Source: Eledone cirrhosa (lineage: Eukaryota). Taken from it: a DNA stretch of 64,000 nucleotides. Made by a program: the position numbers and the translations under genes. This document shows positions 24 through 51,627 of the stretch, one piece after another. Location: the NCBI GenBank assembly GCA_964016885.1, contig OZ024743.1, positions 113,956,001-114,020,000 on the forward strand, in the 5' to 3' direction. A model generated the notes under the pieces. That model was not told the DNA's origin. It searched no databases and saw only the letters and a list, made by a program, of their open reading frames with translations. Numbering within the stretch: the stretch's first letter is position 1; every line of letters begins with the position of its first letter.

Positions 24-179
24 ACAACATAAGATAATTATTTCATTTACCAGTGGTTTCTTGAAGACAGATGTTGTGTCTGTCTTCAGTCGTCAGAATG
101 AATAAAAAACATGGTGTTTTTATTAAATATGGATTTGAAATTCACGAAACCACTGGTAAATGAAATAATTATCTTATGT

Positions 180-182
<3 letters not shown>
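24..182. repeat. Inverted repeat (37-bp perfect arms, 24-60 and 146-182) carrying HHR-A and ending in (TA)n
   Basis: ACAACATAAGATAATTATTTCATTTACCAGTGGTTTC and its reverse complement. Confidence 0.9.
42..102 (-). ncRNA. Type I hammerhead ribozyme motif (HHR-A)
   Basis: Minus strand reads TTCATT-CTGACGA-cTGAAGACAGA[CACAACA]TCTGTCTTCAa-GAAAC-CACTG-GTA-AATGAA. Core intact; stem I 6 bp, stem II 10 bp, short stem III, GUA cleavage triplet. Confidence 0.8.
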
Positions 183-222
<40 letters not shown>

Positions 223-226
<4 letters not shown>

Positions 227-527
227 AGAACAAAGTGGGGGTGTTACATAGGAGATTTATTGCTTAATCCTGGTTACAAATGTTTCTCACGCAGCCAGCT
301 CGTGATCTGGGTTGGCACCCCAGACCATACTCCAAGTCTGCCTGATCCTCAGACCAGTATTAACACAACAAAAATCACATCAAATCTGTGGACAAACCAG
401 CCAGGCACAAACACTCCTATAAAATGACCAATCACAGGCCTAGAATTCAAGCCAGCTGCTTGAGAAACATTTGTAACCAGGATTGAGGAATAAATCTCCT
501 ATGTACCACCTCCACTTTGGTCTTATT
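223..527. repeat. Diverged inverted repeat (about 78-bp arms, 223-300 and 450-527) carrying HHR-B
   Basis: AATAAGAACAAAGTGGGG...TGTTTCTCACGCAGC versus GCTGCTTGAGAAACA...CCACTTTGGTCTTATT; TA tracts at both outer ends. Confidence 0.85.
264..363 (-). ncRNA. Type I hammerhead ribozyme motif (HHR-B)
   Basis: Minus strand reads TTAATACTGGT-CTGAGGA-TCAGGCAG...CTGCGTGA-GAAAC-ATTT-GTA-ACCAGGATTAA. Stem I 10/11 bp, stem II 7/8 bp, GUA triplet. Confidence 0.8.
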
Positions 528-878
528 ATATATACTCTGTTCTGCATTAAGTGCTGACCTTCGTATTCTCACCAGGTTAATCAAAATGCTACATGTCGTC
601 ACTATTAGAACCACAGCTCCACCAAAATAATTTTTTAAAAAATTCATTAGGAGCAGTAACATAAAAATTCAAGGGTAAGATATTGTCTAAACAAATGTAT
701 CCACCACATTATATGTTTGTGTATGTATATATATATATATATATATGTAGAAGTTATATTTAAATTGTTGGGATACAACAAGCAAATATTTTATAACCGA
801 TATAAAGCACTCAACAAATTATTGGAGTAAAAATACGATATATTAACAAATGGAAACTATATTTATAAAACCATATTT

Positions 879-941
879 ATTTCATTATACATATTTCAAG
901 GACACCAAGTCAAAATATGGTGCACTTTCATCAGATAAAAT
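879..941 (-). ncRNA. Type I hammerhead ribozyme motif (HHR-C, left inverted copy)
   Basis: Minus strand reads ATTTTAT-CTGATGA-AAGTGCACCA...TGGTGTCCTT-GAAA-TATGTAT-A-ATGAAAT. Stem III is minimal. Confidence 0.65.
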
Positions 942-1432
942 ATAATATAGATCAGTTTTATAAATAAATATTGACATACCCTTAAAGAATGCGACCACTT
1001 AATCAAATTTAAACATTAGATAAAATTCTCCGGTTATTATTATTTATTTATTTCTATTCACGCTTATTTACTCTGCGTAACTCATCCAATAAATATTTTT
1101 TTTTTCGCGACATCTTAAAATTTACGTTAATACAACAACCTATCACTTAGGGCTTTCTCTTTCTTTTTCTCTTTTTTCTCTTTTTTCTCTTTCTCTTGTT
1201 TTCTTCTTTTCCTCTTAGAATTTACTCTTTCTTTTCTCTTTTTCTTTCTCTTTTCCTTTTTCCATACTCCAACGGCTTATTTTAAATCTACTGTGATTCA
1301 AACATATCCGACACTAATTTGCATAATAGACTAAATAAATTTAATAACCCCACTATCCGGGAGCTTCCAGCAGAAATGGTCGCATTCTTTAAGGGTATGT
1401 CAATATTTATTTATAAAACTGATCTATATTAT

Positions 1433-1495
1433 ATTTTATCTGATGAAAGCGCACCATAATTTGACTTGGTGTCCTTGAAATATGTATAATGAAAT
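1433..1495 (+). ncRNA. Type I hammerhead ribozyme motif (HHR-C, right copy)
   Basis: ATTTTAT-CTGATGA-AAGCGCACCA...TGGTGTCCTT-GAAA-TATGTAT-A-ATGAAAT. Stem I has one G-U pair; stem II 9/10 pairs. Confidence 0.65.
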
Positions 1496-2049
1496 AAATA
1501 TAGTTTTATAAATATAGTTTCCATTTGTTAATATATCGTATATATATATACAGAGAGAGGAAAGCTGAGGGGAAAATACATTAACATATTAGCTACCAAG
1601 CCACATTTCCCATTTTATCCCCTGGTTGTAATATGATTTCATTTGGATTGGCAGTATTGGTAGAGGGTCGGACGCTATGCTTTGCAGCAAAGACTTACGT
1701 CCCTTTATGGTCTGAGTTCAAATCCCGCCGAGGTTAACTTTGCCTTTCATCCTTACAGGGTCGATAAAATAAAGCACCAGTAATACACTGGGATAATTGC
1801 TGGCCGTGTGCCAAATGTAGAAACAATTATTTTAATATAAGCACCATAATATGTGTTTGCACTATATGTGAATGAAGGATGACATAGATATTTACCCACG
1901 TCTTACCGGATGAGTCGTTTGGTACATATGTTCATATTACAAACAAAAGTCTCACGTCATCATAACAAAATAAAACAAAAACAAAAAACATGGAATAACC
2001 TACAGGATGGTTGTGCAGGTCTTGCACATATACCAATGCATTCTTTGTG

Positions 2050-2400
2050 CTGGTGGTGGTGGTGGTAGTAATAATGGTGAGAGGAGGGACTTTGTGGTGG
2101 TGGTGGCGGTGGTAATGATGGTAGTAATAATGGTGAGAGGAGGGACTTTGTGGTGGTGGTGGTGGTAATGATGGTAATAATAATGGTGAGAGGAGGGACT
2201 TTGTGGTGGTGGTGGTGGTGGTGGTAATGATGGTAGTAATAATTGTGAGAGGAGGGACTTTGTGGTGGTGGTGGTGGTGGTAATGATGGTAGTAATAATG
2301 GTGAGAGGAGGGACTTTGTGGTGGTGGTAACAGTGGTGGTGGGGATTTGTGTTGGTGGTGATGATAGTGGTGGTAATAATGGTGGGTGTAATGATACTGA
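2050..2400. repeat. (GGT)-rich minisatellite, unit about 45-55 bp
   Basis: GTGAGAGGAGGGACTTTGTGGTGGT...AATAAT repeated 5 times. Confidence 0.9.
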
Positions 2401-4090: not shown

Positions 4091-4125
<35 letters not shown>

Positions 4126-4949: not shown

Positions 4950-7740
4950 CAGTGGAATGGCGTCATCTTATGGTTAAAACAGCACAAAGAAAAAGGCCTC
5001 AGTACCCTGCGCGTCAATTGGGCCACTCCATGACGGTGGAGTGCAACCCAAGCCTCTCGGGCTGCTAAGAATCACAGGTTGCCGAAGGCCGCCAAGGAAC
5101 AGGACTAACCTTGCAGTTCTTAAGGCAGGGGGGCAAGGACTGAACCACCTAATGGAGGAGAAGAAGAAGATCAGGTGCGACGTGTTAGGGTTGTGCGAGA
5201 CCCGCCAGAAGAAGGAGGCGAGTTCGCGATGGCAAGATGGGTGCGCCTTGAGACTCGGGAAAGCAGAGGGTGCCAGATCGGTCGGAGGTATAGGGTTCAT
5301 CGTAAGCAAGGAATGGGCTTCGAAGGTCGCTTCTTGCCAGTTCATATCGTCACAGATTGGTGTACTGAACGTGAACCTCTCAGGGAAAGCCACCCTCAAG
5401 ATCATCCAGACCTACGCTCCCACAAGTACCAGCGACGACGATGAGGTGGAAGAATTCTATCGCCAGCTAGACAAAGTGCTAGCTGTGAAGTCCACTTACA
5501 CCATCGTGATGGGAGACTTCAACGCAAAGGTCGGACAGGGACGGCAAGGGGAAGAGTATGTCGGAAGATTTGGCCTAGGAGAGCTAAATGAGAGAGGAGA
5601 GCGTCTGGTCACCATGGCGGAGGCGAGACGGCTTTACATCGGAAACAGCCTATTCAGGAAGAAGAAGGAGAAGAGATGGACCTGGGTATCGCCAAATTCT
5701 GAGCACCGAAACGAGATTGACTACATCTTGGTCGACAAGCGACGCATACTGCAGGACGTCTCCGTCATAACGCCATTCAACACTGGCAGTGATCATCGTC
5801 TGGTGAGGGCAAGGATCGTCATCGACAGGACGAGGGAGAAGAAGGCGCTGCATTTGGCGTGGAAGGGAGAACACGTCCGGGTCCTCAACAAGGCGCAGCT
5901 GCAGAAAGCCATTATGCAGGAAAAGTGGCATCAAGGAAACGGCATAGACGCTGACTACGACTCACTGATAAAGAAACTGAAGGAGTGCTTGAGGAAGGTT
6001 AAGGGTGTGTGCCCGACGAAGCGGAAGGGAAGAATCTCGGAGGAAACTATGAAATTGCTTGAGAAAAGGAAGAATATGAAGAGGATACCTGAAGATCACC
6101 TCGAATATTCCCTTCTCAGCAGAGTGATACGTCAACAACTGAAGAGAGACTTCGAGGCATACGGGATGGAGAAGCTCCTGAAGGTCGCAAAGGAAAAGAA
6201 GAGCTTCAAGAAATGCGAGAAGGACATGACAATGTACAGATCGGAGGTGACGACTCTGAAAAACACAGATGGAGTACCGGTCAGCAACAAGAGTGAGGTG
6301 GAAAAGGTTTGCGAAGACTTCTACACCAAGCTCTTCAAGTCTGCCGGGAATGTGCAGCCGTCACCATCACTCCAACAGGAAGAAAATGTGCCACCCATCC
6401 TTGTCGGTGAGGTCGAAAGAGCCGTCGGCTTGATGAAAAGCGGAAAGGCACCAGGGAAAGACGGCATAACATCAGAGGTGTTGAAGTCAGGCGGAGAGCA
6501 GCTCTGGAAAATCCTCACCGAGTGATTCACACGCTATCTGGACGAGGGAAGAATACCCTCGCAGTGGAAAGAGTCGAATACCATCCTGCTATACAAGAAG
6601 GGCGATAGAGGAGATCTGAAGAACTACCGACCCATATGCCTGCTGTCTCACATGTACAAGCTGTTCACGAAGATAATCCTGAACAGGTTATCACGTCATC
6701 TGGACGAACAGCAACCGAGAGAGCAAGCCGGCTTCCGGAAAAACTACAGCATGATGGACTGCATATTTACTCTGACACAACTGCTTGAGCGAGCAAAAGA
6801 GTACAAGATGCCTCTTTGCGTCGCGTTCGTAGACTACGAGAAGGCCTTCGACAGCGTCGAAATCAACGCAGTGCTGAACTCACTGCAGAGGCAAGGAGTC
6901 AAGGCGCAATACGTTCAACTGCTCAGGGGGGTGGGTTCCTGATGCACCACCGACATAGCTCTGCTGTCATCACACGTACGAGTGCCGGTCGAGAAGGGAG
7001 TGAAGCAACGAGATACGATCTCTCCAAAACTTTTCACCACGTGTCTCGAGCAGATCATCAGAGGCATTGACTGGCAAGGCGGTGTCAACATCAATGGCAA
7101 GATACTTACCCACCTCCGTTTTGCTGATGACATCGTACTCATCACTGAGACCACAGAGCAGCTTCAGACCATGCTGACGGAGCTCGATATCAAAAGCTCT
7201 GCAGTAGGCCTCAAGATGAACCGCATGAAAACGAAGTTCATGCGGTCCGACAACGTACCAACAGGTCGAATGGTGGTTGGCGGTGATGAAATAGAGGAGG
7301 TGGAGGAATACGTCTACCTGGGACAAGAAGTGAACATGCGCCGAGACATTGAGAGGGAGATCTTGCGGAGAGTAAAGGCCGGATGGAAAGCGTTCAACGG
7401 CATAAGGGATGTGTTCAAGGGAAGGTTGGACAAGACCACCCGCGCCAACCTCTTCAATAGCACAGTTTTCCCTACAATGTTATATGGCAGTGAAACTTGA
7501 GCTACAACGAAGAGAGAAGAGCAGAGGCTGGTAACGACTCAAAGAGCCATGGAGAGATCAATGCTAGGAATCTCGTTGAGAGAGCACATCAGGAGCGAAG
7601 TCATCAGACAGAAGTCCGGCGTGAGGGACGTCATCACGGAATATAAGCGCAGCAAGTTCAGATGGGCTGGACACGTCGCCCAGTTCACCGATAATCGGTG
7701 GACCCGCGCAGTTGTCGAGTGGTACCTGCGCGAGCGGAAA
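4950..7740 (+). mobile_element. RTE-clade LINE, near full-length ORF (APE endonuclease + reverse transcriptase), inactivated and 3'-truncated
   Basis: APE motifs LCETR, YAPT, GDFNAKVG, EIDYIL, SDHRLV; RT motifs KAPGKDG, QAGFR, FVDYEKAFDSV, LRFADD, YVYLG. Stops at 6523-6525 and 7498-7500; frameshift near 6930. The 5' boundary is approximate. Confidence 0.95.
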
Positions 7741-7760: not shown

Positions 7761-7833
7761 TTCCTTTCTGATGAACGACTTTGGACACCCCTGTTGAGGT
7801 CACCTGTCTCCGTGAAACCCTTAGTAAATGGAA
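7761..7833 (+). ncRNA. Type I hammerhead ribozyme motif (HHR-D)
   Basis: TTCCTTT-CTGATGA-ACG...CGT-GAAAC-CCTTA-GTA-AATGGAA. Stem I 6/7 bp, GUA triplet. Confidence 0.7.
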
Positions 7834-7923
7834 TAATTGTATTGTGTTGTTTATTACATAATTAAATAGCTCTGTACTATACATAGAGCACTCTGCCTTC
7901 CTTTACCTTTTCTACAGAAATAC

Positions 7924-7963
<40 letters not shown>

Positions 7964-8078
7964 ATTTCTGTAGAAAAGGTAAGGGAAAGCAGAGTGCTCT
8001 ATGTATAGTACAGAGCTATTTAATTATGTAATAAACAACACAATACAATTATTCCATTTACTAAGGGTTTCACGGAGA
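7807..8078. repeat. Inverted repeat (119-bp arms, 7807-7925 and 7960-8078) separated by (TA)n
   Basis: TCTCCGTGAAACCCTTAGT...AGAAATACTT and its reverse complement. Confidence 0.92.
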
Positions 8079-8814
8079 TATATATATATATATATTAGTA
8101 TTGGTGCTCTGAAATAGCAATGTATACATGAATGTATGTATAGTATATTTGGCAATATACTGTATGTTTTATTAAAAACATTTTGAAGCCCCTTCGCTAT
8201 GAGTATTAAAATAGTGACTATGTCAATTATTTTCGGCAAAAACAAAGGGAGAGTAATCGATGATCTGTTTCTCACTTGTTAGCTTTTATCAAGACCACGG
8301 AATCGCCTGCCTTTGCCGAAAATTATAGAAGTTGGATTCTTATAAAATTTCAGTAATATTTAAGAGCTGATTAAACAGAGTGATTGCAGGCCCAGCAAAA
8401 ATTAGGTATATCATCATCATCATCATTTTATGTCAATTTTTCCACACTAGCATGGGTTAAACAGGTTGTGCTGTTGTGGGCAATGCTAGGTCAGGTGACC
8501 ATGTTTTGCACATACAGAACTGATATTTGCTTGGTTTCTACAGCTGAATGCCCTTCCTAACACCAACCTCATTTACAGTGAGTACTGGGTGCTTTTTGTC
8601 ATGACACCTACACGACCACTTTACAGTGTGGGTTGGGCACTTTTTGTTGTATCACCATCACAACCCCTTTACAAGGGCTTCACTGGATGTATAGTTAGTA
8701 CTGCCCACGTGGGGATATATGGGAGGGTGGGTTGGGTGGTGCATACTGCAGATATGCTTCAGTTTCTGCCTGTGCCTGCGGGGAGTCATGTCATATATAT
8801 ATATATATATATAT

Positions 8815-8990
8815 ATAGGAACGAGTAGGACCCCGACGGCTGAGCTCAAGCCGCTTCGACGTAGCCGTCGAAACGGCTTGAGCTCAGCCGTCGGGGTCCT
8901 ACTCGTTCCTATTACCCACTCTACTACCCTAAGTATTAAGTACTTTGGTACGTTATGGCCCATCTGGTTCCTTACCACATTTCCTTTGTT
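8815..8990 (+). mobile_element. Fold-back element: GC-rich hairpin 8815-8912 plus a unique tail, inserted in (TA)n; contains the 3' half of a hammerhead
   Basis: 47-bp arms (1 mismatch) with loop TAGC. GAAACGGCT-TGAGCTC-AGCCGT-C-GGGGTC is stem III plus a GUC site. Homologous copy at 47797-47977. Confidence 0.8.
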
Positions 8991-10927: not shown

Positions 10928-11842
10928 ACTTATGTAGACCAAAGCCTCTGGAAACTGTTTGGCTATTTGAAATACATGGCATTGTAGTAGTTTATGATAG
11001 CTTTTGCTATCATCATCATCATCATCATACATCTACACTGGCATAAGTTAACACTTGTTGTCAAAGTCCAAGACCTGAAGCATCAGAGCAATCAATCTTG
11101 ATCAGTATGTTCTCTATTTGGCATGGTTTCTATGGATCACCTTCATAATGCAAACCACTTTACAGTGTATACTGTGAGTGTTTTTCATGACATCAGCACT
11201 ACAATTTTACAGAGAAGAATGAATGCATTTTGTCATAGTACCAACACTAACACTTTACAGGGTACACTTGGTTCATTTTATTACAAAACCAGCAATAGAG
11301 AGGCTGTCAAATGCTAGTCCAGACAAAAGAGTCCTCTCAAACCCTGCAATGTCCCCATTTGATTGTCAACCGCTAGAAACTGTGGTCATATTGCCTACAT
11401 CGGTTGGTGGTCCTTTTAAATTATGGCACATCACCACTCAGCTTGGTCCTGTGTCATCATCATAATTGTTTCTACTTTTGGCACAAGGCCAGCAATTATC
11501 CCAGTGCATTACTGGTACTTTATTTGATCGACCCCGTAAGGATGAAAGGCAAAGTTAACCTTGGCGGGATAATGTGGTTCAGTTTGTAGAGGCCATTTTT
11601 CACAACTTTGTTCTCTGCTATTTATACTTAGATTTGCCTTATGCTAAAGGCACTGCATAGTTACAAAATTATTATATCAGCAAGAAATTGTTAGAAACAT
11701 ACTTCTATTTCCAACTGAATATATATACAAGGTGTCCCCAAAAATGTATACATATTTTGATTTATATATATATGTATGTATACACACTTTGATTTATATA
11801 TATATATATATAAATCAAAGTGTGTATACATACATATATATA

Positions 11843-12730
11843 CCCCCACTTAACAACCGGGCTGAGAGAAATGAGCTGACATGGCTAACTTAACCATAGT
11901 GACCATTCACAGCCTACGGCCTGCTATCTTCACACACACGCACGTATATGCATACCCATACGCATACACACACACATCTATATTTATACACGCACACATG
12001 TTTTTACAACCTACCACCTTTCACACCCTTTGATTTCCAGCTTCTACAGCCCACTATCTTTCACACACAAACGCACTCACACATATACACACACAGTTAC
12101 ACACACATGTATACCCATACGCTTACACACACACATCTATATTTATACACGCACACATGTTTTACAACCTACCACCTTTCACACCCTTTGATTTCCAGCT
12201 TCTACAGCCCACTATCTTTCACACACACACACACTCACACATATACACACTTACACTTATACACACACAGTTACACACACATATATATTTACACACACAT
12301 ATCTTACGGCTTTCACATGCTAGCGCACCCTCTTGATTTAACCCATTTGGTCAGTAGCTTTTGCCACAGCCTATCACGCGCACGCGCATTCTTTCCCTCG
12401 TTTAAATTTTAAATAATTTTCTCCCCATAACGGCATTCCTGTCTTAACGACATCACAACTTTCTCCGCTTGGCCTGTTCCCCCCCTTTTGGAACTTTCCC
12501 CCGTTGATGGGCGTGAGCCCGAAATATTGGGATTAAATCTCTACTACGGTAACCCTTCTACCTTTGTTTTGTTTTCATCTTTGTCTCTCTCAATTTTCAC
12601 TTTCACCTGTTTTTCCTGTCTATCTTTCACTTCCTACCTCGAGATTTCCCTCTGCATTGTTGTGGCTTTCTTAAATACGTATTTTACACATTTCACAATG
12701 CTTCAAGCAAACTTTAACACCCTCTTAACA
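11843..12730 (+). mobile_element. Possible Penelope-like element 3' fragment / pseudo-LTR
   Basis: Inserted in (TA)n. Starts with PPLNNRAERNELTWLT* (like a GIY-YIG ORF end), has an internal tandem duplication, a hammerhead-like motif at 12497-12532 and a pyrimidine-rich tail. Confidence 0.4.
12497..12532 (+). ncRNA. Degenerate minimal hammerhead-like motif
   Basis: TCCC-CCGTTGA-T-GGGC[GTGA]GCCC-GAAA-TATT-GGGA. Stem I and the GNRA-capped stem II are perfect, but the core has two substitutions. Confidence 0.4.
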
Positions 12731-12799
12731 TACATATATATATATATATAAATCAAAGTGTGTATACATACATATATATATGTATATATATATATATAT

Positions 12800-15700: not shown

Positions 15701-16187
15701 CTTGATAAATTACGACCTCACACGCTTACACCTCTCCAAGACAATGTCACTGGACCGAGATCTTTGGTGCTACACAGTAATACAGAAGACCTGCCTTGCC
15801 TAAGTACAAAGTGAAACCTACAGTCAGTAGGCACCTCTTAACAAAAATACACCCCGTCCCACTACCCCCACCCCATTCACACTACCCCTTTCGATGTAAA
15901 GTCATGTTGGTACCACAACATCCAGTCTAAAATAAATGAGGTCGTGTAGGTGTCACAACAAAAAAACACACAGTCCACGCTGTAATGTGGCCGTGTAGGT
16001 AACATGGTAAAAACCTCCAATTCCACACCGTATATGTGGTTGGTGTTAGGAAGGGCATCCAGCCGTAGAAAACCCGCCAGACAGTCCTATACGAGCAAGA
16101 CAACCAATCTTGCCTCAAGTGGGAAAATTCCCGTCCAAACCCATGCAAGCGTGGAAGATGGACGTTAAACGATGATGATGATGATGA
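12800..16187 (+). mobile_element. RTE-like LINE family 2 (APE + RT with PHD-like finger), multiple frameshifts/stops, long 3' UTR and (GAT)n tail
   Basis: CIQETRW, YAPQSG, GDLNGHVG, IDYIL, QHRL, MQFGF, LLYADDL, LHGSETW, RLRWYGHV in consecutive ORFs; tail GGACGTTAAAC(GAT)n. Confidence 0.95.
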
Positions 16188-16432
16188 TATATATATATAT
16201 ATATATATCAAAGTGTGTATACATACATATCTATCTATCTATATATATATATACATATCTATATATATCTATCTCTATATATATATATATATATACATAT
16301 CTATATATATATATCTATCTCTATATATATATATATATATACATATCTATATATATATATCTATCTCTATATATATATATATATACATATCTATATATAT
16401 ATATCTATCTATATATATATATATATATATAT

Positions 16433-16770: not shown

Positions 16771-17081
16771 TACATATCTATATATATCTATATATATATA
16801 GATATATACATATTTATATATATCTATATATATATAAATATACATATCTATATATACATATCTATATATATCTATATATATGTAGATAAATCTACCAAGA
16901 GTTTACGGTAGTGTCCAATCCGTATGAAGAACTCAATGTAGTCCGGATATCATGGAAAGAAGAGATGCAATGAAAAATCACTTTCGGTGAAAGATAAACG
17001 GAATACAGAGTCAAGATAAAATATTAAAAGAATAATGAATAAAACAATGAAACAGTTCCTTATATTAAACAAAAAAAGTTC

Positions 17082-17218
17082 ATTATTTAACGATCGTTTC
17101 TAGGATATATATGTTAGAATTGGCATGCATATTCAACAGATCTATGTACAAAATTATACAAACTATCAAGATTAAATATACATACCAAACACACATATAT
17201 GCCGTCTTCAGAAATAAT
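17082..17218 (-). ncRNA. Type I hammerhead ribozyme motif (HHR-E, left mirror copy)
   Basis: Reverse complement of the 17217-17365 motif, lacking a 10-bp internal duplication. Confidence 0.7.
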
Positions 17219-17365
17219 TATTTCTGAAGACGGCATATATGTGTGTTTGGTATGTATATTTAATCTTGATAGTTTGTATAATTTTGTATAATTTTGTACA
17301 TAGATCTGTTGAATATGCATGCCAATTCTAACACATATATATCCTAGAAACGATCGTTAAATAAT
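17217..17365 (+). ncRNA. Type I hammerhead ribozyme motif with long stem II (HHR-E, right copy)
   Basis: ATTATTT-CTGAAGA-cGGCATATATGTGT...ACACATATATATCCta-GAAAC-GATC-GTT-AAATAAT. Perfect 7-bp stem I; palindromic stem III region AACGATCGTT. Confidence 0.7.
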
Positions 17366-17453
17366 GAACTTTTTTTGTTTAATATAAGGAACTGTTTCAT
17401 TGTTTTATTCATTATTCTTTTAATATATTATATCTATATATATAGATATATAT

Positions 17454-37384: not shown

Positions 37385-37580
37385 TAAGGGTCCGCTAAAA
37401 AGTTCATAGACTGACTTCAGAAAGAGTGATGCTAGAACTGTGAAATCTTGCAAGCATTAATTTCAATTCTTATTAATAACTGTGTTGTTTCTTTCCTGGG
37501 AATATGTTGGAAAATAAACCCCATTTAGTCATTCCATGAGAGTATCTTGATCAGCCTATGAATTTTTCAGCCAACCCTTG
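37385..37580. mobile_element. Mariner-like MITE
   Basis: Imperfect TIRs AAGGGTCCGCTAAAAAGTTCATAGACTGA / TCAGCCTATGAATTTTTCAGCCAACCCTT. Confidence 0.6.
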
Positions 37581-37599
37581 CAAAATAGCACAGAGTAAA

Positions 37600-40500
37600 T
37601 AAACAACAACATCAACAACAATGACAGCAACAGCAACATCATTAACAACAATGACACCAACAGCAAATCAATGACAACATCATTAACAACAATGTCAGCA
37701 ACAACAGCAACAACAACATCAATGACAACAACAACAACAGTAACATCAATGACAGCAACAACAGCAGCAACATCAATGACAACAGCAGCAACATCAATGA
37801 CAACAACAGCAGCAATATCAATGACAACAACAACAGCAACATCAATGACAACAACAACAGCAATATCAATGACAACGACAGCAACAACAGCAGCAACATC
37901 AATGACAACAACAACAACAGCAACATCAATGACAACAACAGCAGCAACATCAATGACAACAACAACAACAGCAACAACAACAGCAACATCAATGACAACA
38001 ACAACAGCAACATCAATGACAACAACAACAGCAATATCAATGACAACAACAACAGCAACATCAATGACAACAACAACAGCAACATCAATGACAACAACAA
38101 CAGCAACATCAATGACAACAACAACAGCAACATCAATGACAACAACAGCAATATCAATGACAACAACAGCAATATCAATGACAACAACAACAGCAACATC
38201 AATGACAACAACAACAGCAACATCAATGACAACAACAGCAGCAATATCAATGACAACAACAGCAATATCAATGACAACAACAGCAACATCAATGACAACA
38301 ACAACAGCAACATCAATGACAACAACAACAGCAATATCAATGACAACAACAGCAGCAATATCAATGACAACAGCAACATCAATGACAACAACAGCAATAT
38401 CAATGGCAACAACAACAGCAACATCAATGACAACAACAACAGCAACATCAATGACAACAACAGCAACATCAATGACAACAACATCAATGACAACAACAAC
38501 AGCAACATCAATGACAACAACAGCAATATCAATGACAACAACAGCACCATCAATGACAACAACAACAGCAACATCAATGACAACAACAGCAACATCAATG
38601 ACAACAACAACAGCAATATCAATGACAACAACAACAGCAATATCAATGACAACAACAGCAATATCAATGACAACAACAACAGCAACATCAATGACAACAA
38701 CAGCAATATCAATGACAACAACAGCAATATCAATGACAACAACAACAGCAATATCAATGACAACAACAACAGCAACATCAATGACAACAACAGCAATATC
38801 AATGACAACAACAACAGCAACATCAATGACAACAACAGCAATATCAATGACAACAACAACAGCAATATCAATGACAACAACAGCAGCAATATCAATGACA
38901 ACAACAGCAACATCAATGACAACAACAACAGCAATATCAATGACAACAACAGCAACATCAATGACAACAACAACAGCAATATCAATGACAACAACAACAG
39001 CAACATCAATGACAACAACAGCAATATCAATGACAACAACAGCAACATCAATGACAACAACAGCAATATCAATGACAACAACAACAGCAATATCAATGAC
39101 AACAACAGCAATATCAATGACAACAACAGGAACATCAATGACAACAACAGCAATATCAATGACAACAACAACAGCAACATCAATGACAACAACAGCAACA
39201 TCAATGACAACAACAACAGCAATATCAATGACAACAACAACAGCAACATCAATGACAACAACAGCAATATCAATGACAACAACAGCAACATCAATGACAA
39301 CAACAGCAACATCAATGACAACAACAGCAATATCAATGACAACAACAACAGCAACATCAATGACAACAACAACAACAGCAACATCAATGACAACAACAAC
39401 AACAGCAACATCAATGACAACAACAACAGCAACATCAATGACAACAACAGCAATATCAATGACAACAACAGCAACATCAATGACAACAACAGCAATATCA
39501 ATGACAACAACAACAGCAATATCAATGACAACAACAGCAATATCAATGACAACAACAGGAACATCAATGACAACAACAGGAACATCAATGACAACAACAG
39601 CAATATCAATGACAACAACAACAGCAACATCAATGACAACAACAGCAACATCAATGACAACAACAACAGCAATATCAATGACAACAACAACAGCAACATC
39701 AATGACAACAACAGCAATATCAATGACAACAACAGCAACATCAATGACAACAACAGCAACATCAATGACAACAACAGCAATATCAATGACAACAACAACA
39801 GCAACATCAATGACAACAACAACAACAGCAACATCAATGACAACAACAACAACAGCAACATCAATGACAACAACAACAACAGCAACATCAATGACAACAA
39901 CAACAGCAATATCAATGACAACAACAGCAACATCAATGACAACAACAACAGCAATATCAATGACAACAACAACAGCAACATCAATGACAACAACAGCAAT
40001 ATCAATGACAACAACAGCAACATCAATGACAACAACAGCAATATCAATGACAACAACAACAGCAATATCAATGACAACAACAGCAATATCAATGACAACA
40101 ACAGGAACATCAATGACAACAACAGCAATATCAATGACAACAACAACAGCAACATCAATGACAACAACAGCAGCAATATCAATGACAACAACAGCAGCAA
40201 CATCAATGACAACAACAGCAGCAACATCAATGACAACAACAGCAGCAACATCAATGACAACAACAGCAGCAATATCAATGACAACAACAGCAACATCTTC
40301 AACGATAACAGCAACAACAATATCAATGACAACATCAAGTTCAATGACAACAACAACAACATCAAGTTCAATGACAATAACAACAACAAGAACATCAAGT
40401 TCAGTGACAACAACAACAACACAACAAGTTCAATGACAACAACAACAACAACATCAAGTCCAGTGACAACAACAACAACATCAAGTCCAGTGACAACAAC

Positions 40501-40755
40501 AACAACAACAAGTTCAATGACAACAAAAACAACAACAACATCAAGTTCAATGACAACAACAACATCAAGTCCAGTGACAACAACAACATCAAGTTCAGTG
40601 ACAACAACAACATCAAGTTCAATGACAACAAAAACAATAACATCAAGTTCAATGACAACAACAGAAACTTCAACGACAACAAAAACAACATCAAGTTCAG
40701 TGACAACAACAACAACAACCTCAAAGATAACATCAATGTTAATAACAACAAAACA
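37600..40755. repeat. 3.1-kb (ACA)-based satellite, unit GCAAYATCAATG(ACA)n of 18-27 bp
   Basis: Direct inspection; the unit shifts to ATCAAGT(T/C)CA(A/G)TG(ACA)n after about 40330. Confidence 0.95.
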
Positions 40756-41234
40756 AACTACTTGTTTATCAACACAATTGCGATGGAGTAAAATTTGATC
40801 ATAGATCTGTGTGATCAGGGTTGACCTGCCCTGGGCTTAATAACAACAACAATAACAAGAAAAACTACAAAGAGTAAATAATTATTAGAAAACGAGTTAA
40901 CAGGGGGATATTTATAGTCACTCAACCTGCTAGAAATAGCAGCTAAATATCCATCCAAATACACTCTTTACAGTTTTCAAAGGGAGCAACACATTGTATG
41001 GTATATTTCAAGGGTGTACCATGCATAATAAAAATATGGGGTGGTCGTAGTTGGAATATCTTTTATCATAGGGTCAGCCTAGTTAAGGCTGACCTGTGGT
41101 TCAACAACAACAGCAGTAACATTTGCAAACAGTGAGAACAGTAATATGAAAAATGAGTAAAATGAGCAGCTATCCCATCTCTGAAAGGGAAATAATCATT
41201 GTATTTTGTTTGGACTGGTGTATATAGCGAAGTG

Positions 41235-41915
41235 GTGGTGTGGTTTTGTAGTGTTGGTAGGTGGATACAACCATGTGTTGGTGTGGGTTACATGTGGTGT
41301 GGTTATGTAGTGTTGGTAGGTGGATATAGCCATGTGTTGGTGTGGGCTACATGTGGTGTGGTTATGTAGTGTTGGTAGGTGGATATAGCCATGTGTTGGC
41401 GTGGGCTACATGTGGTGTGGTTATGTAGTGTTGGTAGGTGTATATAACCATGTGTTGGTGTGGGCTACATGTGGTGTGGTTATGTAGTGTTGGTAGGTGT
41501 ATATAACCATGTGTTGGTGTGGGCTACATGTAGTGTGGTTATGTAGAGTTGGTAGGTGGATATAGCCATGCGTTGGTGTGGGCTGACTACATGTTGGTGT
41601 GGGCTACATGTGGTGTGGTTATGTAGTGTTGGTAGGTGTATATAGCCATGTGTTGATGTGAGCTACATGTGGTGTGGTTATGTAGAGTTGGTAGGTGTAT
41701 ATAGCCATGTGTTGGTGTGGGCTACATGTGGTGTGGTTATGTAGTGTTGGTAGGTGTATATAGCCATGTGTTGGTGTGGGCTACATGTGGTGTGGTTATG
41801 TAGTGTTGGTAGGTGTATATAGCCATGTGTTGGTGTGGGCTACATGTGGTGTGGTTATGTAGTGTTGGTAGGTGTATATAGCCATGTGTTGGCGTGGGCT
41901 ACATGTGGTGTGTAG
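41235..41915. repeat. 59-bp tandem repeat, about 11 copies
   Basis: TGTGGTGTGGTTATGTAGTGTTGGTAGGTGTATATAGCCATGTGTTGGTGTGGGCTACA. Confidence 0.93.
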
Positions 41916-42210
41916 ACATGGTAGGTGTAGATAGGCATGTGTTTGTATGGGCTGACTACATGTTGGTGTGGCCTAGATGTGGTTGTGTAGTCAGCCATTG
42001 AAGGCCACATGTAATGAGAAAGGTAGATAAGTAGGTAGACATGTAGGTATGTAGACAAGGTCATAGATATGTAGGTAGGTAGATAGATAGGTAGGTAGAC
42101 AGGTAAGTAGGTTGGTAGGTGGGTAGGTAGGTAGGTAGGTAGGTAGGTAGGTAGGTAGGTAGGTAGGAAAGTAAGGAATTTCTTCAGATTAGATAATAAG
42201 TATAACTTAC

Positions 42211-42507
42211 ACTCCACCTCCACCAATTGTGATCCAATAACATGAGGAGGTGATATATGAGTTCTAACCAACGGTGGCGTTGCTGATGACATCAGACAAG
42301 TGTATTTACCAGCATCACTGGCTGAGGTAATATTCATCTTTAACTGAAGTGTGCTTACATCAATTGCATGAGTGAATTGTTTGGGGATAGTTCTGCTGGT
42401 GTTGTGAGTGAAATACATCTGTGACACTTTGCCCAGACTCAGGCCAGAAATGGTACAGTTTAGAACCAGTGGTCTTCCAATAAACAAATAAGGGTTTTCT
42501 GGAGTAA
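42211..42507 (-). CDS. Cytokine-receptor-like gene, exon encoding an Ig-like domain (VTPENPYLFIGRPLVLNCTI...DAGKYTC...SQLVEVE)
   Basis: Acceptor ttttttccag and donor T|gtaag; 297 bp, phase 1-1. Ig motifs L-x-L-x-C and D-x-G-x-Y-x-C. N-glycosylation sequons NCT, NTS, NIT. Lies inside ORF 41855..42559. Confidence 0.9.
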
Positions 42508-45500
42508 CTGGAAAAAAAGAGAGAAACTTCAATAAATAATAAATAAATAATAACAACATAAATTGAAATATAGAATCATATCCTCATCAGCATTTTTAAC
42601 ATTGACTTTTCCATGCCAGCATGTATTGAACAAGTCTTTTTAAGGTAACAACCCAACTTCTCATGGGTATAAGCTGAAGTTGAAGCATATAGAAAATATG
42701 CCCCCACCCCCTCCCATTGCAAAGTGGTCGTAGAGGTGTTACAACAAAAAAGCACCCAGTCCACACTGTAAAGTGGCCGTGTAGACGCCACATGAAAAAA
42801 GCACCCAGTACTCACTATAAATGAGGTTGATGTTAGGAAGGGCATCCAGCCATAGACATCAAGCCAAAATCAGTCCCCGCATGAGCAAGACATGATCACC
42901 CGACCTGGCATTGCCCACAACAGGACAAGCTGTCTAACCCATGCTAGCATGAAAGAAAGGACGTAAAACGGTGATGAGGATTTACAGCTGGAGGGCCTTC
43001 CAGGCACTAATCCTTTTAATCACTTCTTGCAGGAATATGGTGCATGTATTCTAAACTGGGAAACAAAACCAAACAGTACCAAGAACCTTTGTTATGCCAC
43101 TGCTCATATTACATACCATTCTCTTAACCCTTATGAATACTGAAGAGCCTGAAACTGCCCTTGTTTCTGTGATAGAAAATTGTTTGTTTTTAAGTTTTTA
43201 TCCTCATTTTTATGTAGACTTTTCCATACTGACATGGTTTGGACAGGATTTTTGAGGCAATGTTTTACAGCCAGATGCCTTTCCAGACACCAACACATTC
43301 AGTCACTTTTAACAACATCCAGGATACAGTGCACCCTATTCTAAACCAGCCAATTATCTTTATATTTATCTAAGAACCTGTCATCGTAATTTTATCTAAG
43401 AATCTTTATAAAGTCAGATTACAAATGCCAGATTCAAATTGAGAAATTTCTTCTTCTTCTCACCCACTTAACCCTGAGAGGGTCGTGGGGGCAGAGTCCT
43501 CAACCTCAAACACTCCTTCCAAGGGGTCCTGTCAGAAGCAACCATCTCCAACTGATCCAGCTGGATCCCCAAGCGAGACCAGCCAAGCTCATGAGAAAGT
43601 TGGTTAGAATAATTTTGAAAATAATCAAGAATTTTGAGAGGACTTAGCGATTGATATAACTAACAATCTCATTATTGAGCTGATGTTTGGAACATAACTT
43701 AAAGGTTCGTACATAAAATTATGATGGGTTTTTAAATAAAGATAAATATCTTAAAACAAACATCTTCATATAGAATCCAAGAGCTGTTACAGGAGGTTAA
43801 GCACCAAAAGAAAAGAAATCACTAACATGCACATGCTCACACACACACAGGTATGACTGCAGTTAAGAAGTTCACTTCACAGCCACTCTTAGTTTAAGGT
43901 CTTGTCTCACTTTACAGCACATTAAACAAGAGCTTTCTACTATAGCATTGGATCAACTAATGCATTTTAGCAGATAAGTGTTGGTTGTTTGTTAAGGTGG
44001 TAAAGTTGTGTATTGGTGATTGTGTTGTAAAATATGGTTGCAAAATGATCAGGACAAACAATGAATTGAGACTAACAAGCTAACAAAAATGCTAATTTTA
44101 ATATTTTTATTTGTTTCATGGTATACAATGACACCATATATCAAAATATAACGTCTAAACCCATGCTAGAGTGGAAGATAGATGTTAAACGATGATGATG
44201 AACACAACCAGAATACAGAAAAAGTTTGATATAACAGAGGCCGGTTTCTCAACAAGTTGCTAAATGTAGTGTTTACCAATAAGAATATTTTGTGATGATG
44301 ATGTTGGAATTTGTGAGTAAATGTGTGAATGCAAAGATATTGGTAGATGTTGGTGAGTGGTTGGCTGTGACAGAGACTGTTACAACCAAAGTCACTTGTC
44401 CAGTGTCTGAGAGTGCACAGAAAACACACAACCAAACAGGACAGAGAAGGGGGTTTATAGTTATTTTAGCCTACATTTTGTAGATGCAACAATTTTGCTA
44501 CACATTGCGAGAGAATTCTGTAGATGCTAAAGAGGGTATCACTTGTTTGTGTCCTCTATAAATAATACATCCCACAACATAGTAGTTTGATGAAGATGAG
44601 CAGTATATACCGTACATAAACTAAAGGTTGGCTTAGCTGGTCACGCTTGGGGATCCAGTTGGCGATAGTTGCTTCTGATAGGACCTGCTGGAGGGAGTGT
44701 TTGACGACTCTGTCCCCACGACCCACTCAGGAATAAGTCGGCGAAGAAGAAGATCAGGAAAGGCATCAAACCATAGAAAAGCTACCTCAAAAATTTTGTT
44801 CAAACCATGTTAGCATGGAAAAACAGACATTGTATGTCTGTTTTCTATGCCTGCATGAGTTGGATGGGTTGTTATGGTCCACAACAAGACACAGCAGGAG
44901 ACTATTTCTTGCTTATTTCTACATTCTACCTTTGATATGGTTTCTACAGAGCTGGATGCTTTGCCTGACACCAACCAGTTTATACCACGCGAGTTGGAGT
45001 GGCTTTTCCAGTGCATCTCCCTTGCCGTCGTCCATTCTGTCTGCCGGGGCTGTGGGTGGGCCCCATCGCGTACCATTGTAGTTGTTGTAGAAGAAACACA
45101 GGAAGACAACAACTGGAAAGTTTGATTTTCTACTTTATCATTTACTTCTGCACTGAATAAGATATTGTCAATTTACTTTTCAATTTACATATCATTTTCA
45201 TTCATTTCATTTCATTTTACGTCTGCTTTTCCCTGCTTGCAAGGGTGGGACGGGAACTGATGCTGGCTTGATTTCTACAGCTGGATGCCCTTCCTAACAC
45301 CAACCTCATTTACAGTGAGTGCTGGGTGCTTTTTTGCCGTGGCACCTCCACGACCACTTTACAGTGGAATGATAGGGACCCCAGTCCCTATCATCTCATT
45401 TCTACAGCTGAGTAAACTGGAGCAATGTGAAAAAAAGTGTCTTGCTCAAGGAAACAACACATCACCCAGTCTAAGAATTGAACTCACAACCTTTCAATTG

Positions 45501-47791: not shown

Positions 47792-47796
47792 TATAT

Positions 47797-47977
47797 ATAA
47801 CGAAGGAGTTGTGGTAAGGAACCAGATTGACCATAACGCACCACTAGAGTAGTAGAGTGGGTTATAGGAAAAAGTATGACCCCAACGGCAGAGCTCAAGC
47901 CGTTTCGATGGCTATTTCTGGACTGAAGTAGCCGTCGAAACGGCTTGAGCTCTGCCGTCGGGATCATACTTTTTCCT
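47797..47977 (-). mobile_element. Second copy of the fold-back element (hairpin 47866-47977)
   Basis: Shares GAGCTCAAGCCGTTTCG / CGAAACGGCTTGAGCTC arms and the tail ACCCACTCTACTAC...ATCTGGTTCCTTACCACA with 8815-8990; longer loop TTTCTGGACTGAAG. Confidence 0.8.
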
Positions 47978-48206
47978 CTCTCTCTCTCTGTGCGTGTGTC
48001 TGTGTGTGTGCGTGTGCGTGTGTATGTGTCTGTGTATATATATATATATAACAATTCATGTATAAAAAAAGAACCTAACATATTTTGATATCATATTTTG
48101 CAGAAAAAAAAAATCCCTTTAAGGTTTACAACTCCTATTATCATCCTTATATCACCATGGTTATAAACCTTAAACTAATATAAAGAAAATAAAGTGAATA
48201 ACTTAC

Positions 48207-48288
48207 CACGACTGAAGGAGATACAATTGATCCATGGTAGTAGAAGTAAGAGCAAGCAACTAATGTGTTGTCTGCTAAAGTTATCCAT
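48207..48288 (-). CDS. Cytokine-receptor-like gene, first coding exon (signal peptide MDNFSRQHISCLLLLLLPWINCISFSR); the exon including 5' UTR spans 48207-48330
   Basis: Polypyrimidine tract plus acceptor tctctcttctttacag before 48330. In-frame TAA upstream of the ATG. Strong start context GCAATCATGG. Hydrophobic L6 core. Donor G|gtaagt, phase 1, matching the next exon. Confidence 0.85.
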
Positions 48289-48384
48289 GATTGCTAACAC
48301 TGTCTCCTCTGTTTAGAGAAACTTGCATGTCTGTAAAGAAGAGAGAGAGAAAGATTAGCCATTAATATTGATTTCTTATACTGG

Positions 48385-48720
48385 CATGTTAGACAGCCCC
48401 ACAAGTCCCTTAGTGTTAGACACCCCCACCAACCCTCCATAATGTCAGACACCTCCACCAACTCTTATGTTAGACAGCCCCACAAGTCCCATACTGTCAG
48501 ACATCCCCACCAACCCTTATAATGTTAGAAACCCCCACCAAGCCCCATAATTTTAGACAACCACACCAACCCTCATAATTTTAGACAACCCCACCAACCC
48601 TCATAATTTTAGACAACCACACCAACCCCACAATGTTAGACAGCCCCACCAACCCTCATAATGCTAGACAGCCCCACTAACCCCACAATGTTAGACAACC
48701 CCACCAACCCCCATAATTTT
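48385..48720. repeat. 28-30-bp tandem repeat just upstream of the first coding exon's acceptor
   Basis: AATGTTAGACAGCCCCACCAACCCTCAT-like unit, about 11 copies. Confidence 0.88.
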
Positions 48721-50139
48721 GTAAGAGACAGACATAAATCACTTGAAATAAACCTTAATATAAATGGGTCAACCCACATATTGTGAGTGAAATTGGGTTG
48801 ACAGAAACTGATTGGAAGCCTGCAAGATTGACTGTACTTGTAATTTAAAGGGCCAGCTTTATCACACACCCTGTCATACTGAATCTCTCAAAGAATTGTG
48901 TTAAAATTACACATGCCTGTGGAATGCTCAGTCACTTGCATGTCAATTTATAGAGAAGGCTATTCCATAGGTCAAACAACTAGAGTACTTATCTTCAAAA
49001 CTGATCCATTCTGTTTACACAAACAGACACTTCTATAGAACCCAACATAACACATTAACACAGACACACCTTCACAGAAGCCAACACTTTACATTAACAG
49101 ACAGATACCTTCACTACACACAAACTGATACACCCACACAGGCTTACTCTATACACAAACAAACACACTTATATTGGCCTCCACTAGACACAAACAAAGA
49201 CACATATTCACAACAATCAGGTGATAAAGATGATAATACTGACAAATCCCAATATATATTATTGCATAGAAAATATTATGTGAATATTATATAAATAATA
49301 TTCCATATAATAATATATAGAATACATTATCTATAATACTCTTTATACTGTATTATTATATATAATAGATTATATATAATCATCTATATATTGTTATATA
49401 CAATATATATATTAATATACATATATATATATATATATATATAAATAATACTCTTTATAATATTATATAGAATATATTATATATATACTACTCTATATAT
49501 TATATACAATACTCTAGATATAAGCATGTTTTAAGAAAAGAAAAAAAAAAAAAAAAAAAATCAATCCTCTGCACATTTTCTTCATAAATGGATTCTACTT
49601 TGAATATTTTTAATAAAGAATTGACTATAGATTATATATAAATATACATACGCTCGCACATATTTACATATATACACATCTGTGCACATACACACATATA
49701 CAAACATATGTATATGCATGCACATACAACACACATAAAAAGGCTTATTTGATGTTGTAAAAAGTAGCATAATGCATGCACATAGATAAATGAATCATAT
49801 AGGTGTGAATGTGTGCATATGTATGTGAAGGTGTATGGCTTAGTGGTTAGAGCGTCAGGAATACACTCATGAGGTTGAGAGTTTGATTCTCGGTCTGGGC
49901 TTTGTGTTGTGTTGTTGTGTTCTTGAGTTCACTCAGCTGTAGAAATGAGTTGCGACATCACCAGTGCCAAGCTGTATCGGCCATTGCCTTTCCCTTGGAG
50001 AGGGGGAGACTGGTATGCATGGGCGACTGCTGATCTTTCACAAACAACCTTGCCCGGACTTGTGCCTCGAAGGGGAACTTTCTAGGTTCAAATCCCATGG
50101 TCATTGATGACCGAAGGGGGTCTTATATACATGCATACA

Positions 50140-50412
50140 TAGAAAAGTCAGCTCAAAAGTGACACAGAGGAGACTGAGGTTAGCTGGACATGCTCACCGA
50201 CATCCAGAGTTGACATTGCACTCAGTGCTCCTGTGGGAGCCCCTACATGGACACACTAGAAGAGGAAGACCAAGGTTAACGTATGTTGATGCCCTAAGGA
50301 CAGACACTGGTCTGTTGGAGACGCAGGACATGGCAGCGATAATAAGGGACAGAGACTGCTGGAGAGAACTCGTCCATGGATCTCGGGAATTTTACCCGCC
50401 TTAGATAGATAC
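50140..50412 (+). mobile_element. 3' end of a third RTE-like LINE
   Basis: RRLRLAGHAHRHPE...LLWEPLHG..RRGRPRLTYVDAL is a typical RTE C-terminus. Confidence 0.8.
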
Positions 50413-50929
50413 ATACAATACATATAAATACTTCATTTTTGCATTCGTTCTACAAGATTTTTTAATGTGAAAACGTGTGTTGAAATAGATGGTGTATAAT
50501 AGAACAATGAGGAGATACAAAGTAACAACAGTAGTCATTGAACAGGCCACAATCTGTGACGAAAGAACCATCCATTTATTAACCCTTTAGCATTTACATT
50601 ACTCTATATTTACTATTATATTTTTATGGCAAAGGCTTTACCTCCCATGATTATCTCACATAATATCGAATCTATGAGATTTTGATATTTATTTTGAGAA
50701 CAATACCTTCACATAAATATGAGAAGTCGGTTACAGCTGGTTTGAACAGGAAGAGGCGAGAGAATTCTGGCCGGATACAACCAGTTTAAATGTTAAAGGG
50801 TTAAACTAACTGACAGAAAAATTAATTAACTATTTGACTAATAATAATAAATTGAAGTGAAATTCAACTAGTGCATGTGTTTTTATTGGCAGCATGACCC
50901 TCCCAAAGTATATATATATATATATATAT

Positions 50930-51627
50930 ATATTCATTAGTTAAGAAAAACAAGACCACAAATTTCACAAGGAAGACATTATTAAAAGATTGTCAACATA
51001 TTTAGTTTGATGTAAGGAATGTAGAGAATAATAATAATAATAATACCCGTTTACAATTGTTTCGCTACTCCGTATAATATTTCTGGATCAGATGACTATG
51101 TATCATAATTGATCTGGTTCAGTTGAAAATAATTAACATATTTAAAAAAACAGAGTGGCTCATCGGAACTCAAAGGAATATAAATTAAAATAATGTTACA
51201 TAATATAATGTTCCATATATTAGTTGTTACCCATAGGCAGATCTCACACAATGCAGCCTCAACAGATGAGTACTGCTTGATTATGGCTGACAGCTGATGA
51301 AACAAAGGCAGCATAGTAAAAACTAATATATGGAACATTATATTATGTAACATTATTTTAATTTATATTCCTTTGAGTTCCGATGAGCCACTCTGTTTTT
51401 TTAAATATGTTAATTATTTTCAACTGAACCAGATCAATTATGATACATAGTCATCTGATCCAGAAATATTATACGGAGTAGCGAAACAATTGTAAACGGG
51501 CATTATTATTATTAATATTATTATTATTATTATTCTCTACATTCCTTACATCAAACTAAATATGTTGACAATCTTTTAATAATGTCTTGTGAAATTTGTG
51601 GTCTTGTTTTGCTTAACTAATGAATAT
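50930..51627. repeat. Inverted repeat (about 300-bp arms, 50930-51225 and 51321-51627) carrying HHR-F in both arms
   Basis: Near-identical reverse-complement arms around a 95-bp spacer; the left end abuts (TA)n. Confidence 0.93.
51377..51497 (+). ncRNA. Hammerhead-like motif with variant core CCGATGA (HHR-F, right copy; mirror copy at 51049-51169 on minus)
   Basis: GTT-CCGATGA-GCCACTCTGT...ACGGAGTAGC-GAAAC-AATT-GTA-AAC. Stem II 9/10 pairs, palindromic ACAATTGT; stem I only 3 bp. Confidence 0.55.

Follow-up and report, generated by a model that had tools for sequence, protein, structure and literature searches.

We analysed 64,000 nucleotides of the genome of Eledone cirrhosa (contig OZ024743.1 of assembly GCA_964016885.1, positions 113,956,001 to 114,020,000 of the forward strand); this whole stretch is called the window, and coordinates count from its first base. 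A first-pass annotation had described type I hammerhead ribozymes at six places in it, each packed in an inverted duplication next to (TA)n, and had related them to Penelope-like retroelements. The six loci are named here L1 (24-182), L2 (216-554), L3 (746-1541), L4 (7745-8078), L5 (16886-17431) and L6 (50933-51704). The hammerhead layout was confirmed at every one of them.

The layout was searched for as an ordered pattern (core, stem II, GAAA, stem III, NUH, stem I) at three settings, each compared with 100 shuffled sequences. The medium setting found five cores (L1, L2, L4 and two in L3), compared to a shuffle mean of 0.07 and a maximum of 1, and 0 of 100 shuffles reached five. The loose setting found eight, adding both cores of L5 and a stray one at 54666, versus a shuffle mean of 1.02; 0 of 100 shuffles reached eight. 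At the strict setting no core was found in the window, and the shuffle mean was 0.00. A second descriptor, tuned only after the loci were known, gave nine cores versus 0.10 per shuffle (0 of 200 reached nine); eight of these lie at five loci, L4 is missed, and one at 7061 is stray. Within the window, the comparison with shuffled sequence, which the first-pass annotation had proposed genome-wide, turned out in its favour. The stray matches at 54666 and 7061 have neither a stable stem II nor an inverted arm and were dropped. A search against Rfam, which had also been proposed, detected nothing: no hammerhead family was among the 150 of 268 matches listed for the window, and no hammerhead model matched in three short scans (L1-L3; L4; one L6 copy), L5 being covered only within the whole-window scan. 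Below-threshold Rfam matches were hairpin-type microRNA look-alikes, which we took as chance.

L1 carries a type I hammerhead at 42-102 on the minus strand, with the core at 96-90, stem II at 89-61, GAAA at 60-57, a 9-nt palindromic stem III and a predicted cut after 48 (GUA). Its head-to-head arms lie at 24-65 and 141-182; of these, the right one, which joins TA, has just the ribozyme's 3' half, and the left, long arm runs out of the window. A (TA)20 run at 182-221 is common to L1 and L2. The L2 hammerhead (264-363, minus strand) has its core at 352-346, a 59-nt stem II, an 8-nt stem III with one mismatch and a predicted cut after 275. The long arm of L2 (455-554, plus strand) consists of the ribozyme 3' half followed by a tail hairpin at 534-554, whose outer stem has one mismatch. 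In L3, the inverted long arm (746-1000, minus strand) contains a hammerhead at 879-941 with its core at 934, and a tail of about 87 nt (746-832) with a hairpin at 807-828, ending at TA 726-745. The sense arm of L3 (1001-1541, plus strand) has a multi-copy non-coding body at 1001-1373 and a hammerhead at 1433-1495 with its core at 1440, and its short end joins TA 1539-1550.

The sense arm of L4 (7745-7926, plus strand) holds an apparently decayed hammerhead at 7761-7833 (core at 7768) and a tail hairpin at 7869-7891, and on its left side it joins a long interspersed nuclear element (LINE) without 3' end. Its mirror arm (7959-8078, minus strand) is arranged tail-to-tail about TA 7927-7958, with the ribozyme 3' half, a hairpin at 7994-8016 and an outside TA run at 8078-8095. 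L5 has a long arm at 16886-17223 on the minus strand (core at 17211, 104-nt stem II, 8-nt stem III forming a perfect palindrome, and a long hairpin at 16929-17011 within a tail of about 130 nt) and a short arm at 17224-17431 on the plus strand (core at 17224, 116-nt stem II) that joins a TA-rich run. The short arm of L6 (50933-51236, minus strand) joins TA 50909-50932 and contains a hammerhead with a U4C core at 51166 and a 3-bp stem I. The long arm of L6 (51311-51704, plus strand) has its core at 51380, where the announced CCGAUGA variant is present, a 96-nt stem II and a perfect 8-nt palindromic stem III, followed by a tail with a long hairpin at 51633-51704. The L6 hammerhead, like that of L4, looks decayed: L4 is weak in stems II and III, and L6 has the short stem I and the U4C core. 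U4C is reported to lower activity in vitro, yet to be tolerated in a viroid (PMC3088659).

The type I layout, with stems I-III and open ends in stem I, is good in L1, L2, L3 and L5. The ribozymes are not minimal, as stem II measures 29 nt in L1, 59 in L2, 30 in L3, 39 in L4, 104 and 116 in L5 and 96 in L6, and the A15.1-U16.1 segment (stem III) is 8-9 nt long and self-complementary. Stem II folds better than its own shuffles in L1 (z -4.8), L2 (z -2.6), L3 (z -2.9) and L5 (z -7.0 and -6.9), weakly better in L6 (z -1.6) and no better in L4 (z +0.8). Stem II of L2, L3 and L5 begins with three base positions, followed by one mismatch and a long extension, maybe a common structural feature. L5 and L6 have a perfect 8-mer as stem III, L3 has an 8-mer that includes G-U pairs, and the 9-mer of L4 is decayed. 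The predicted self-dimer energy of stem III is -6.4 to -10.0 kcal/mol in L1, L5 and L6 and weak in L2, L3 and L4 (-2.9, -2.2 and -0.4 kcal/mol, respectively). L1 reaches the hammerhead shape in an unconstrained fold, and in predicted folds the cost of freeing the core is 1.4-1.6 kcal/mol in L2 and L3 and about 3 kcal/mol in L5. In a read-through RNA, an arm-to-arm duplex is predicted to cover the core and so hold it inactive in L3, L5 and L6, to cover it partly in L2 and to leave it free in L1 and L4. Because stem II reaches 116 nt and Rfam misses these motifs, ribozyme counts in such genomes are likely too low.

All six loci lie in inverted repeats, as the first-pass annotation stated; the duplication of a whole ribozyme was found only in L3, L5 and L6, since the second arm of L1, L2 and L4 has the 3' half only. 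The claimed contact with (TA)n was borne out at all six: an inverted-repeat end lies within 4 nt of a run of at least five TA in 6/6 loci, where random placement gives 6-7% and a joint chance of about 1e-7. In the sense of the ribozyme, L1, L2, L3, L5, L6 and two extra loci are head-to-head pairs of 3' ends. In the five named loci the short arm joins TA about 25-130 nt past the cut site, and the long arm continues through a tail until it reaches another run of TA. A one-sided tail was seen in L2, L3, L5, L6 and both extra loci, and it measures about 66-130 nt in L3, L5 and the extra loci. Arm and tail boundaries were set by eye, and the far ends of the L2 and L6 tails are undefined. The two arms of a locus differ by 1-7 mismatches, which fits a single event per locus.

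The extra loci belong to one family and have both lost the hammerhead 5' core. The first (8817-8989, head-to-head arms), which the first-pass annotation had missed, keeps a hammerhead-like motif's 3' half with GUC and a stem III of 6 bp, and a 79-nt tail with a hairpin at 8918-8943, with TA on both sides. The second (47800-47977, head-to-head) has a homologous 66-nt tail on one arm that ends at TA, a short arm that ends at (CT)n, and a decayed hairpin. The homology of the two tails indicates that the tail is part of the element.

The long arms carry a hairpin motif, RCUC-stem-loop-stem-UW-RAGY-DC, a few bases past the position of the short end. A descriptor of this tail hairpin matched seven sites in the window (L2, L3, L4 twice, L5, L6 and 8817-8989) versus 0.53 per shuffle, and 0 of 200 shuffles reached seven. 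All seven lie on long arms and on the ribozyme strand. When the search used sequence only, 20 window matches were found, and the seven that can pair are the same seven sites. None of the seven short-arm controls (0/7) contained the motif, and it was found neither in the 48 nt of the L1 long arm nor in the decayed locus at 47800-47977. Because of its position immediately beyond the short insertion end, the hairpin is retained by arms with a tail only. Four families have A-U as the outer pair and two have G-C, the inner stem sequences differ, and MAFFT did not bring the tail hairpins into register. The ribozymes had been announced as unrelated; this was not upheld, because L1 and L4 align with 78.6% likeness over 56 nt (E 4e-8; 0/1000 shuffles) and five of the loci have the tail hairpin in common.

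For Penelope-like elements of the Hydra clade, six consensus sequences published by Craig et al. (2021, PMC8557442) were compared with the hairpin solely by visual inspection and brief text searches. On inspection, the motif matches three of the six exactly, namely Hydra-2_Amil and Hydra-2_Ajap about 40 nt past their cut sites and the first bases of Hydra-1_Ajap, and Hydra-1_Crog fits loosely. The 11-nt hairpin stretch of L4 occurs twice in the supplement of that paper (584,131 characters), each time within a Hydra element. The paper's main text uses neither the word hairpin nor the word stem-loop, and we did not find the tail hairpin described in the open literature, a scope that leaves aside subscription journals, Repbase entries and figures S1-S2 of PMC11167929. 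Exact-pattern matches in public collections (2 metagenome loci of AT-rich bacterial type, 2 viral and 13 prokaryotic) were set down to chance; 0/17 have an upstream hammerhead core or a nearby TA run.

Further copies were sought in public sequencing runs. Four of 17 runs (X1, X5, X8 and X15) were compared with window positions 1-1640 at 80% likeness. No RNA run was among the 17 listed, which has no bearing on expression. X8 was set aside, as it matches almost solely a CT-rich tract (about 1153-1216). The reads of X15, a reduced-representation library, seem to begin at a restriction site within stem II, so neither their depth nor their ends served to place boundaries. In X1 the summed depth is 3.7e5-1.9e6 on the L3 arms and up to 3.2e5 on L1, compared to 13.6 for a contig exactly matching the unique flank. 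This shows high repetition of the L1 and L3 families and is no copy number. The L3 centre at 1001-1373 is also repeated (X1 depth 1.7e3-6.6e4). Copies ending in TA before 845 were seen in 1308 reads of X15 and in 2 contigs of X5, a run with another organism label, and copies ending in TA before 18 in 50 contigs of X1.

Nine of the 15 joints listed (55 in total) pass from the left into the right arm of L3, at differing points, and three more of these 15 switch strand inside L3. The eight left-right joints from X1 have depths of 12-45 versus 13.6 for the contig with the unique flank. Head-to-head joining at various places is thus a trait of the L3 family. The covariation that the first-pass annotation expected among family members was seen in the L3 family only, as two compensatory changes in stem II of common copies, C-G to U-A (1452/1471) and A-U to G-C (1448/1475). 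Two further one-sided changes keep the pairing. These were found among 40 of 275 variant rows, and the paired changes were inferred by combining the variant table with the loose-end table.

The window itself is repeat-rich, with LINE fragments, many dispersed short repeats reminiscent of octopus genomes and 122 TA runs. Pfam matches to LINE endonuclease and reverse transcriptase (RT) lie at 4978-7497, 12718-15288 and 56498-57505. An intact Penelope open reading frame (ORF) had been stated to be absent, in agreement with our results: ORFs of at least 500 aa comprise one LINE endonuclease-RT frame and simple-repeat frames, a Pfam scan of 136 of 1173 stop-to-stop frames (at least 30 aa) gave 0 GIY-YIG matches, and its RT matches are LINE-type. 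A possible endonuclease remnant at 1013-1147 was rejected because the CxLC, LN-x-R-x-E and CxH motifs are missing from all frames.

Several features of the surroundings were noted in passing. The LINE at 4978-7740, with endonuclease and RT frames and presumably RTE-like, stops at L4, and its 3' remainder was not seen right of L4. Two other LINE copies (12718-16208 and 55941-57586) are about 92% alike and have a PHD-finger-like stretch after the RT frame (Pfam PHD above cut-off). A 3.3-kb array of 9-15-nt units at 37556-40836 is open in several frames (Thr/Ser/Met-rich on the plus strand, Asn-rich in another) and may be a mucin-like exon or a plain minisatellite. A weak Ig-domain frame at 41858-42583 on the minus strand (Pfam Ig_3 E 1.4e-4, below cut-off) is possibly a host-gene exon. 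A palindrome at 11768-11839, with a TA run in its centre and arms about 25 nt long, has no ribozyme and suggests that fold-back at TA runs occurs here. At 53320-53420 lies a 100-nt palindrome without hammerhead core, whose ends resemble 50883-50908, a segment that abuts the TA run of L6 from the opposite side; this is probably the end of another TA-targeting element.

We consider, with a probability of about 0.85, that the six loci are the 3' ends of 5'-truncated Penelope-like insertions, likely made in (TA)n by a Penelope RT-endonuclease encoded elsewhere in the genome. The parent elements are probably Hydra-type; this label has its best support in L1 and L4. The first-pass annotation rightly recognised the Penelope link, the TA targeting and the palindromic stem III, which are already published in this form. 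Its claim of many families of small non-coding retroelements was not shown. Less than 150 nt upstream of the core is kept in 5/6 loci, so that there a truncated coding element and a non-coding one look alike, and only L3 leans to a non-coding identity, because about 440 nt lack an endonuclease remnant and the depth drops steeply at about 1320-1375. Its rate of about one locus per 10 kb rests on one clumped window, as three of the six loci lie in the first 1.6 kb.

A mechanism can be proposed by analogy with the biochemistry of an element from another clade (PMC11167929). The Penelope enzyme, predicted to be a dimer, would nick both strands of AT-rich DNA, and copying would start at two neighbouring internal RNA sites downstream of the ribozyme. 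Two complementary DNAs (cDNAs) would then begin on both strands of the self-complementary TA run, the near site giving the short arm and the far site the long arm with its tail. Both cDNAs would stop early and join head-to-head, leaving unequal arms. Since each arm keeps sequence on either side of the cut site, the template would be RNA that had stayed uncut or been re-joined. In the parent element's RNA, cleavage is predicted to take place in ribozyme dimers that form through the palindromic stem III. The tail hairpin starts a few bases past the short end, where a binding signal is expected; it may mark the start of copying and is predicted to help set it. We propose tentatively, at somewhat less than even odds, that the hairpin, conserved in at least six window families and in coral and sea cucumber Hydra elements, is the RNA signal that sets the copying start for these Penelope-like enzymes, and that short non-coding families such as L3 reach very high copy number by keeping only the hairpin and a hammerhead with enlarged stem II.

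Several results weigh against the assignment to truncated Penelope-like insertions. No RT or GIY-YIG remnant is joined to any locus, and the parent element was not seen in the window. The roughly 440 nt upstream of the L3 core are non-coding and lack an endonuclease end, which in the Hydra consensi lies, by eye, within about 250 nt of the core. None of the exact 12-13-nt stem III motifs of the loci occurs in the published consensi (0/6), stem III has 8 nt in four loci (L2, L3, L5 and L6) versus 9-10 nt in Hydra elements, and the tails of about 66-130 nt exceed the 30-40 bp quoted by Craig et al. (PMC8557442). L4 is tail-to-tail around a TA run, both of its arms have a tail and a truncated LINE lies to the left; fold-back at the TA run, or two insertions in the same run, would explain it better. 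The joints in the reads are mostly single contigs whose short side is 20-54 nt, a length flagged as unreliable in repeats. The hairpin descriptor was derived from these loci and the hairpin folds are weak (z -0.3 to -2.7), making an outside check important; by eye, the hairpin was not seen in two of the six Hydra consensi, Hydra-1_Amil and the octopus element Hydra-1_Obim.

A dedicated short non-coding element of about 280-540 nt, which has retained hammerhead and tail hairpin and relies on a borrowed Penelope enzyme, would insert by the same mechanism and is possible, if rather unlikely, for the L3 family at least; this is a narrowed form of the first-pass interpretation. The absence of a coding remnant in the 440 nt upstream of its core speaks for it, as does the fall of the X1 depth as a step rather than a smooth slope, from 3.7e5 (1376-1430) to 6.6e4 (1321-1375) and 7.2e3 (1266-1320) and then to only 1.7e3 by 1046-1100. 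Several L3 joints also lie at 1352-1397, and non-autonomous Penelope-like derivatives are known (PMC8557442, from Chlamys; bioRxiv 10.64898/2026.07.22.740005). However, summed contig depth is no copy number, and upstream subfamilies less than 80% alike would give the same step; the join points also spread over 1354-1505, as in random truncation, and in the other five loci the upstream sequence that is left is too short for a judgement. Non-LTR retrozymes (LTR, long terminal repeat), in which tandem monomers are cut by the ribozyme, circularised and copied by rolling circle, would likewise be non-coding with type I hammerheads and low GC content, and a circular template would keep sequence on both sides of the cut site, as seen here. 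We find them improbable. They are head-to-tail tandems (PMC7229834; bioRxiv 10.64898/2026.07.22.740005), and the linkage to tandem monomers that the first-pass annotation had raised was not found: there is no tandem at the six loci, and none of the 15 of 55 joints listed runs from the 3' end back to the start of the unit. Inverted arms with a one-sided tail are instead a Penelope signature.

The inverted duplication might also come from the ribozymes themselves, if two RNAs held together by stem III were delivered to one TA site and each copied from one strand. The palindromic stem III, with its dimer energies in L1, L5 and L6, and the fact that both arms are 3' ends agree with such dimerisation. 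Against it, the dimer energy is weak in L2, L3 and L4, Naiad elements form inverted insertions without canonical hammerheads (PMC8557442), and in vitro ribozyme-dead mutants insert normally with a protein that is itself a predicted dimer (PMC11167929); we regard this route as improbable, with odds under one in ten. Chance motifs in AT-rich palindromes, or DNA transposons of the miniature inverted-repeat transposable element (MITE) type, have in their favour a TA-centred palindrome without hammerhead such as that at 11768-11839 and the lack of an Rfam hammerhead match within the scans described above. This explanation is largely refuted by the shuffles, 0/100 and 0/200 of which reach the observed counts, by the paired stem II changes, and by unequal arms with varied inner joins, unlike fixed terminal inverted repeats. 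It is very improbable.

The interpretation as truncated Penelope-like insertions places the loci among several known systems. Cervera and De la Pena (2014, PMC4209133) described opposite-strand pairs of minimal hammerheads 100-700 bp apart, ascribed to truncated elements, and many hammerhead families in each genome, most of them truncated, whose stem III is palindromic and whose activity as dimers is low. The present loci are like that set in their many families, opposite-strand pairs, a palindromic stem III predicted to act in a dimer, and a base at the foot of stem II that is unpaired or mismatched; they differ in their longer stems II and III, and the G10.1-C11.1 pair after a single bulged base is mostly absent. 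As the main pattern is already published, the loci add new families and no new kind of element. They resemble non-LTR retrozymes in being non-coding with a type I hammerhead (PMC7229834; bioRxiv 10.64898/2026.07.22.740005), and those elements are thought to be derived from and dependent on Penelope-like elements; unlike the head-to-tail tandems and circular RNA of retrozymes, the loci are inverted pairs, and no tandem was seen at them. One octopus genome is listed with 31 recently active Penelope-like families (PMC13282606), which is relevant here insofar as the host is an octopus.

The tail hairpin offers a specific candidate for an RNA signal at which reverse transcription begins in Penelope-like elements that target TA, and it could help to classify remnants without ORF. 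To our knowledge, only one such element has been studied in vitro so far. The Poseidon element PAc from the green anole encodes a protein that nicks and extends both strands of AT-rich DNA, with two internal RNA start sites whose spacing equals the genomic tail; the protein is a predicted dimer, and a dead ribozyme inserts normally (Frangieh et al. 2024, PMC11167929). By analogy, the window loci would share with PAc two 3' ends downstream of the ribozyme that define the tail, an AT-rich target, extension of both strands and a stem-loop at the start of copying. PAc belongs to another clade, and its start sites are in an AC-rich stem-loop within the ORF; the present hairpin differs in sequence and is part of the tail.

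An inverted 5'-truncated copy, a one-sided tail and (TA)n targeting have been described for Penelope-like elements by Craig et al. (2021, PMC8557442), who noted such a copy for Penelope-13_HM. The Hydra clade in that work is TA-targeting and hammerhead-bearing, includes an octopus member, and is marked in its protein by RWK and DKT motifs and a CxCX5C linker without CCHH. The (TA)n preference is shared by Hydra, Naiad and Neptune and hence is not diagnostic. The present loci differ from the Hydra clade in having no attached ORF and a stem II of 29-116 nt versus about 10-30 nt in the published table. They are like Hydra elements (e.g. Hydra-1_Obim, Hydra-2_Amil and Hydra-1/2_Ajap) in their (TA)n targets and in a type I hammerhead near the 3' end, and also in a bulged hairpin about 40-80 nt past the cut site, 139 nt in L6. 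In our reading of the published table, which is not the authors' definition, a palindromic stem III of 9-10 nt is the rule; that of L1 has 9 nt and that of L4 a decayed 9, and the L1 stem III differs from that of Hydra-1_oBim in the centre base only.

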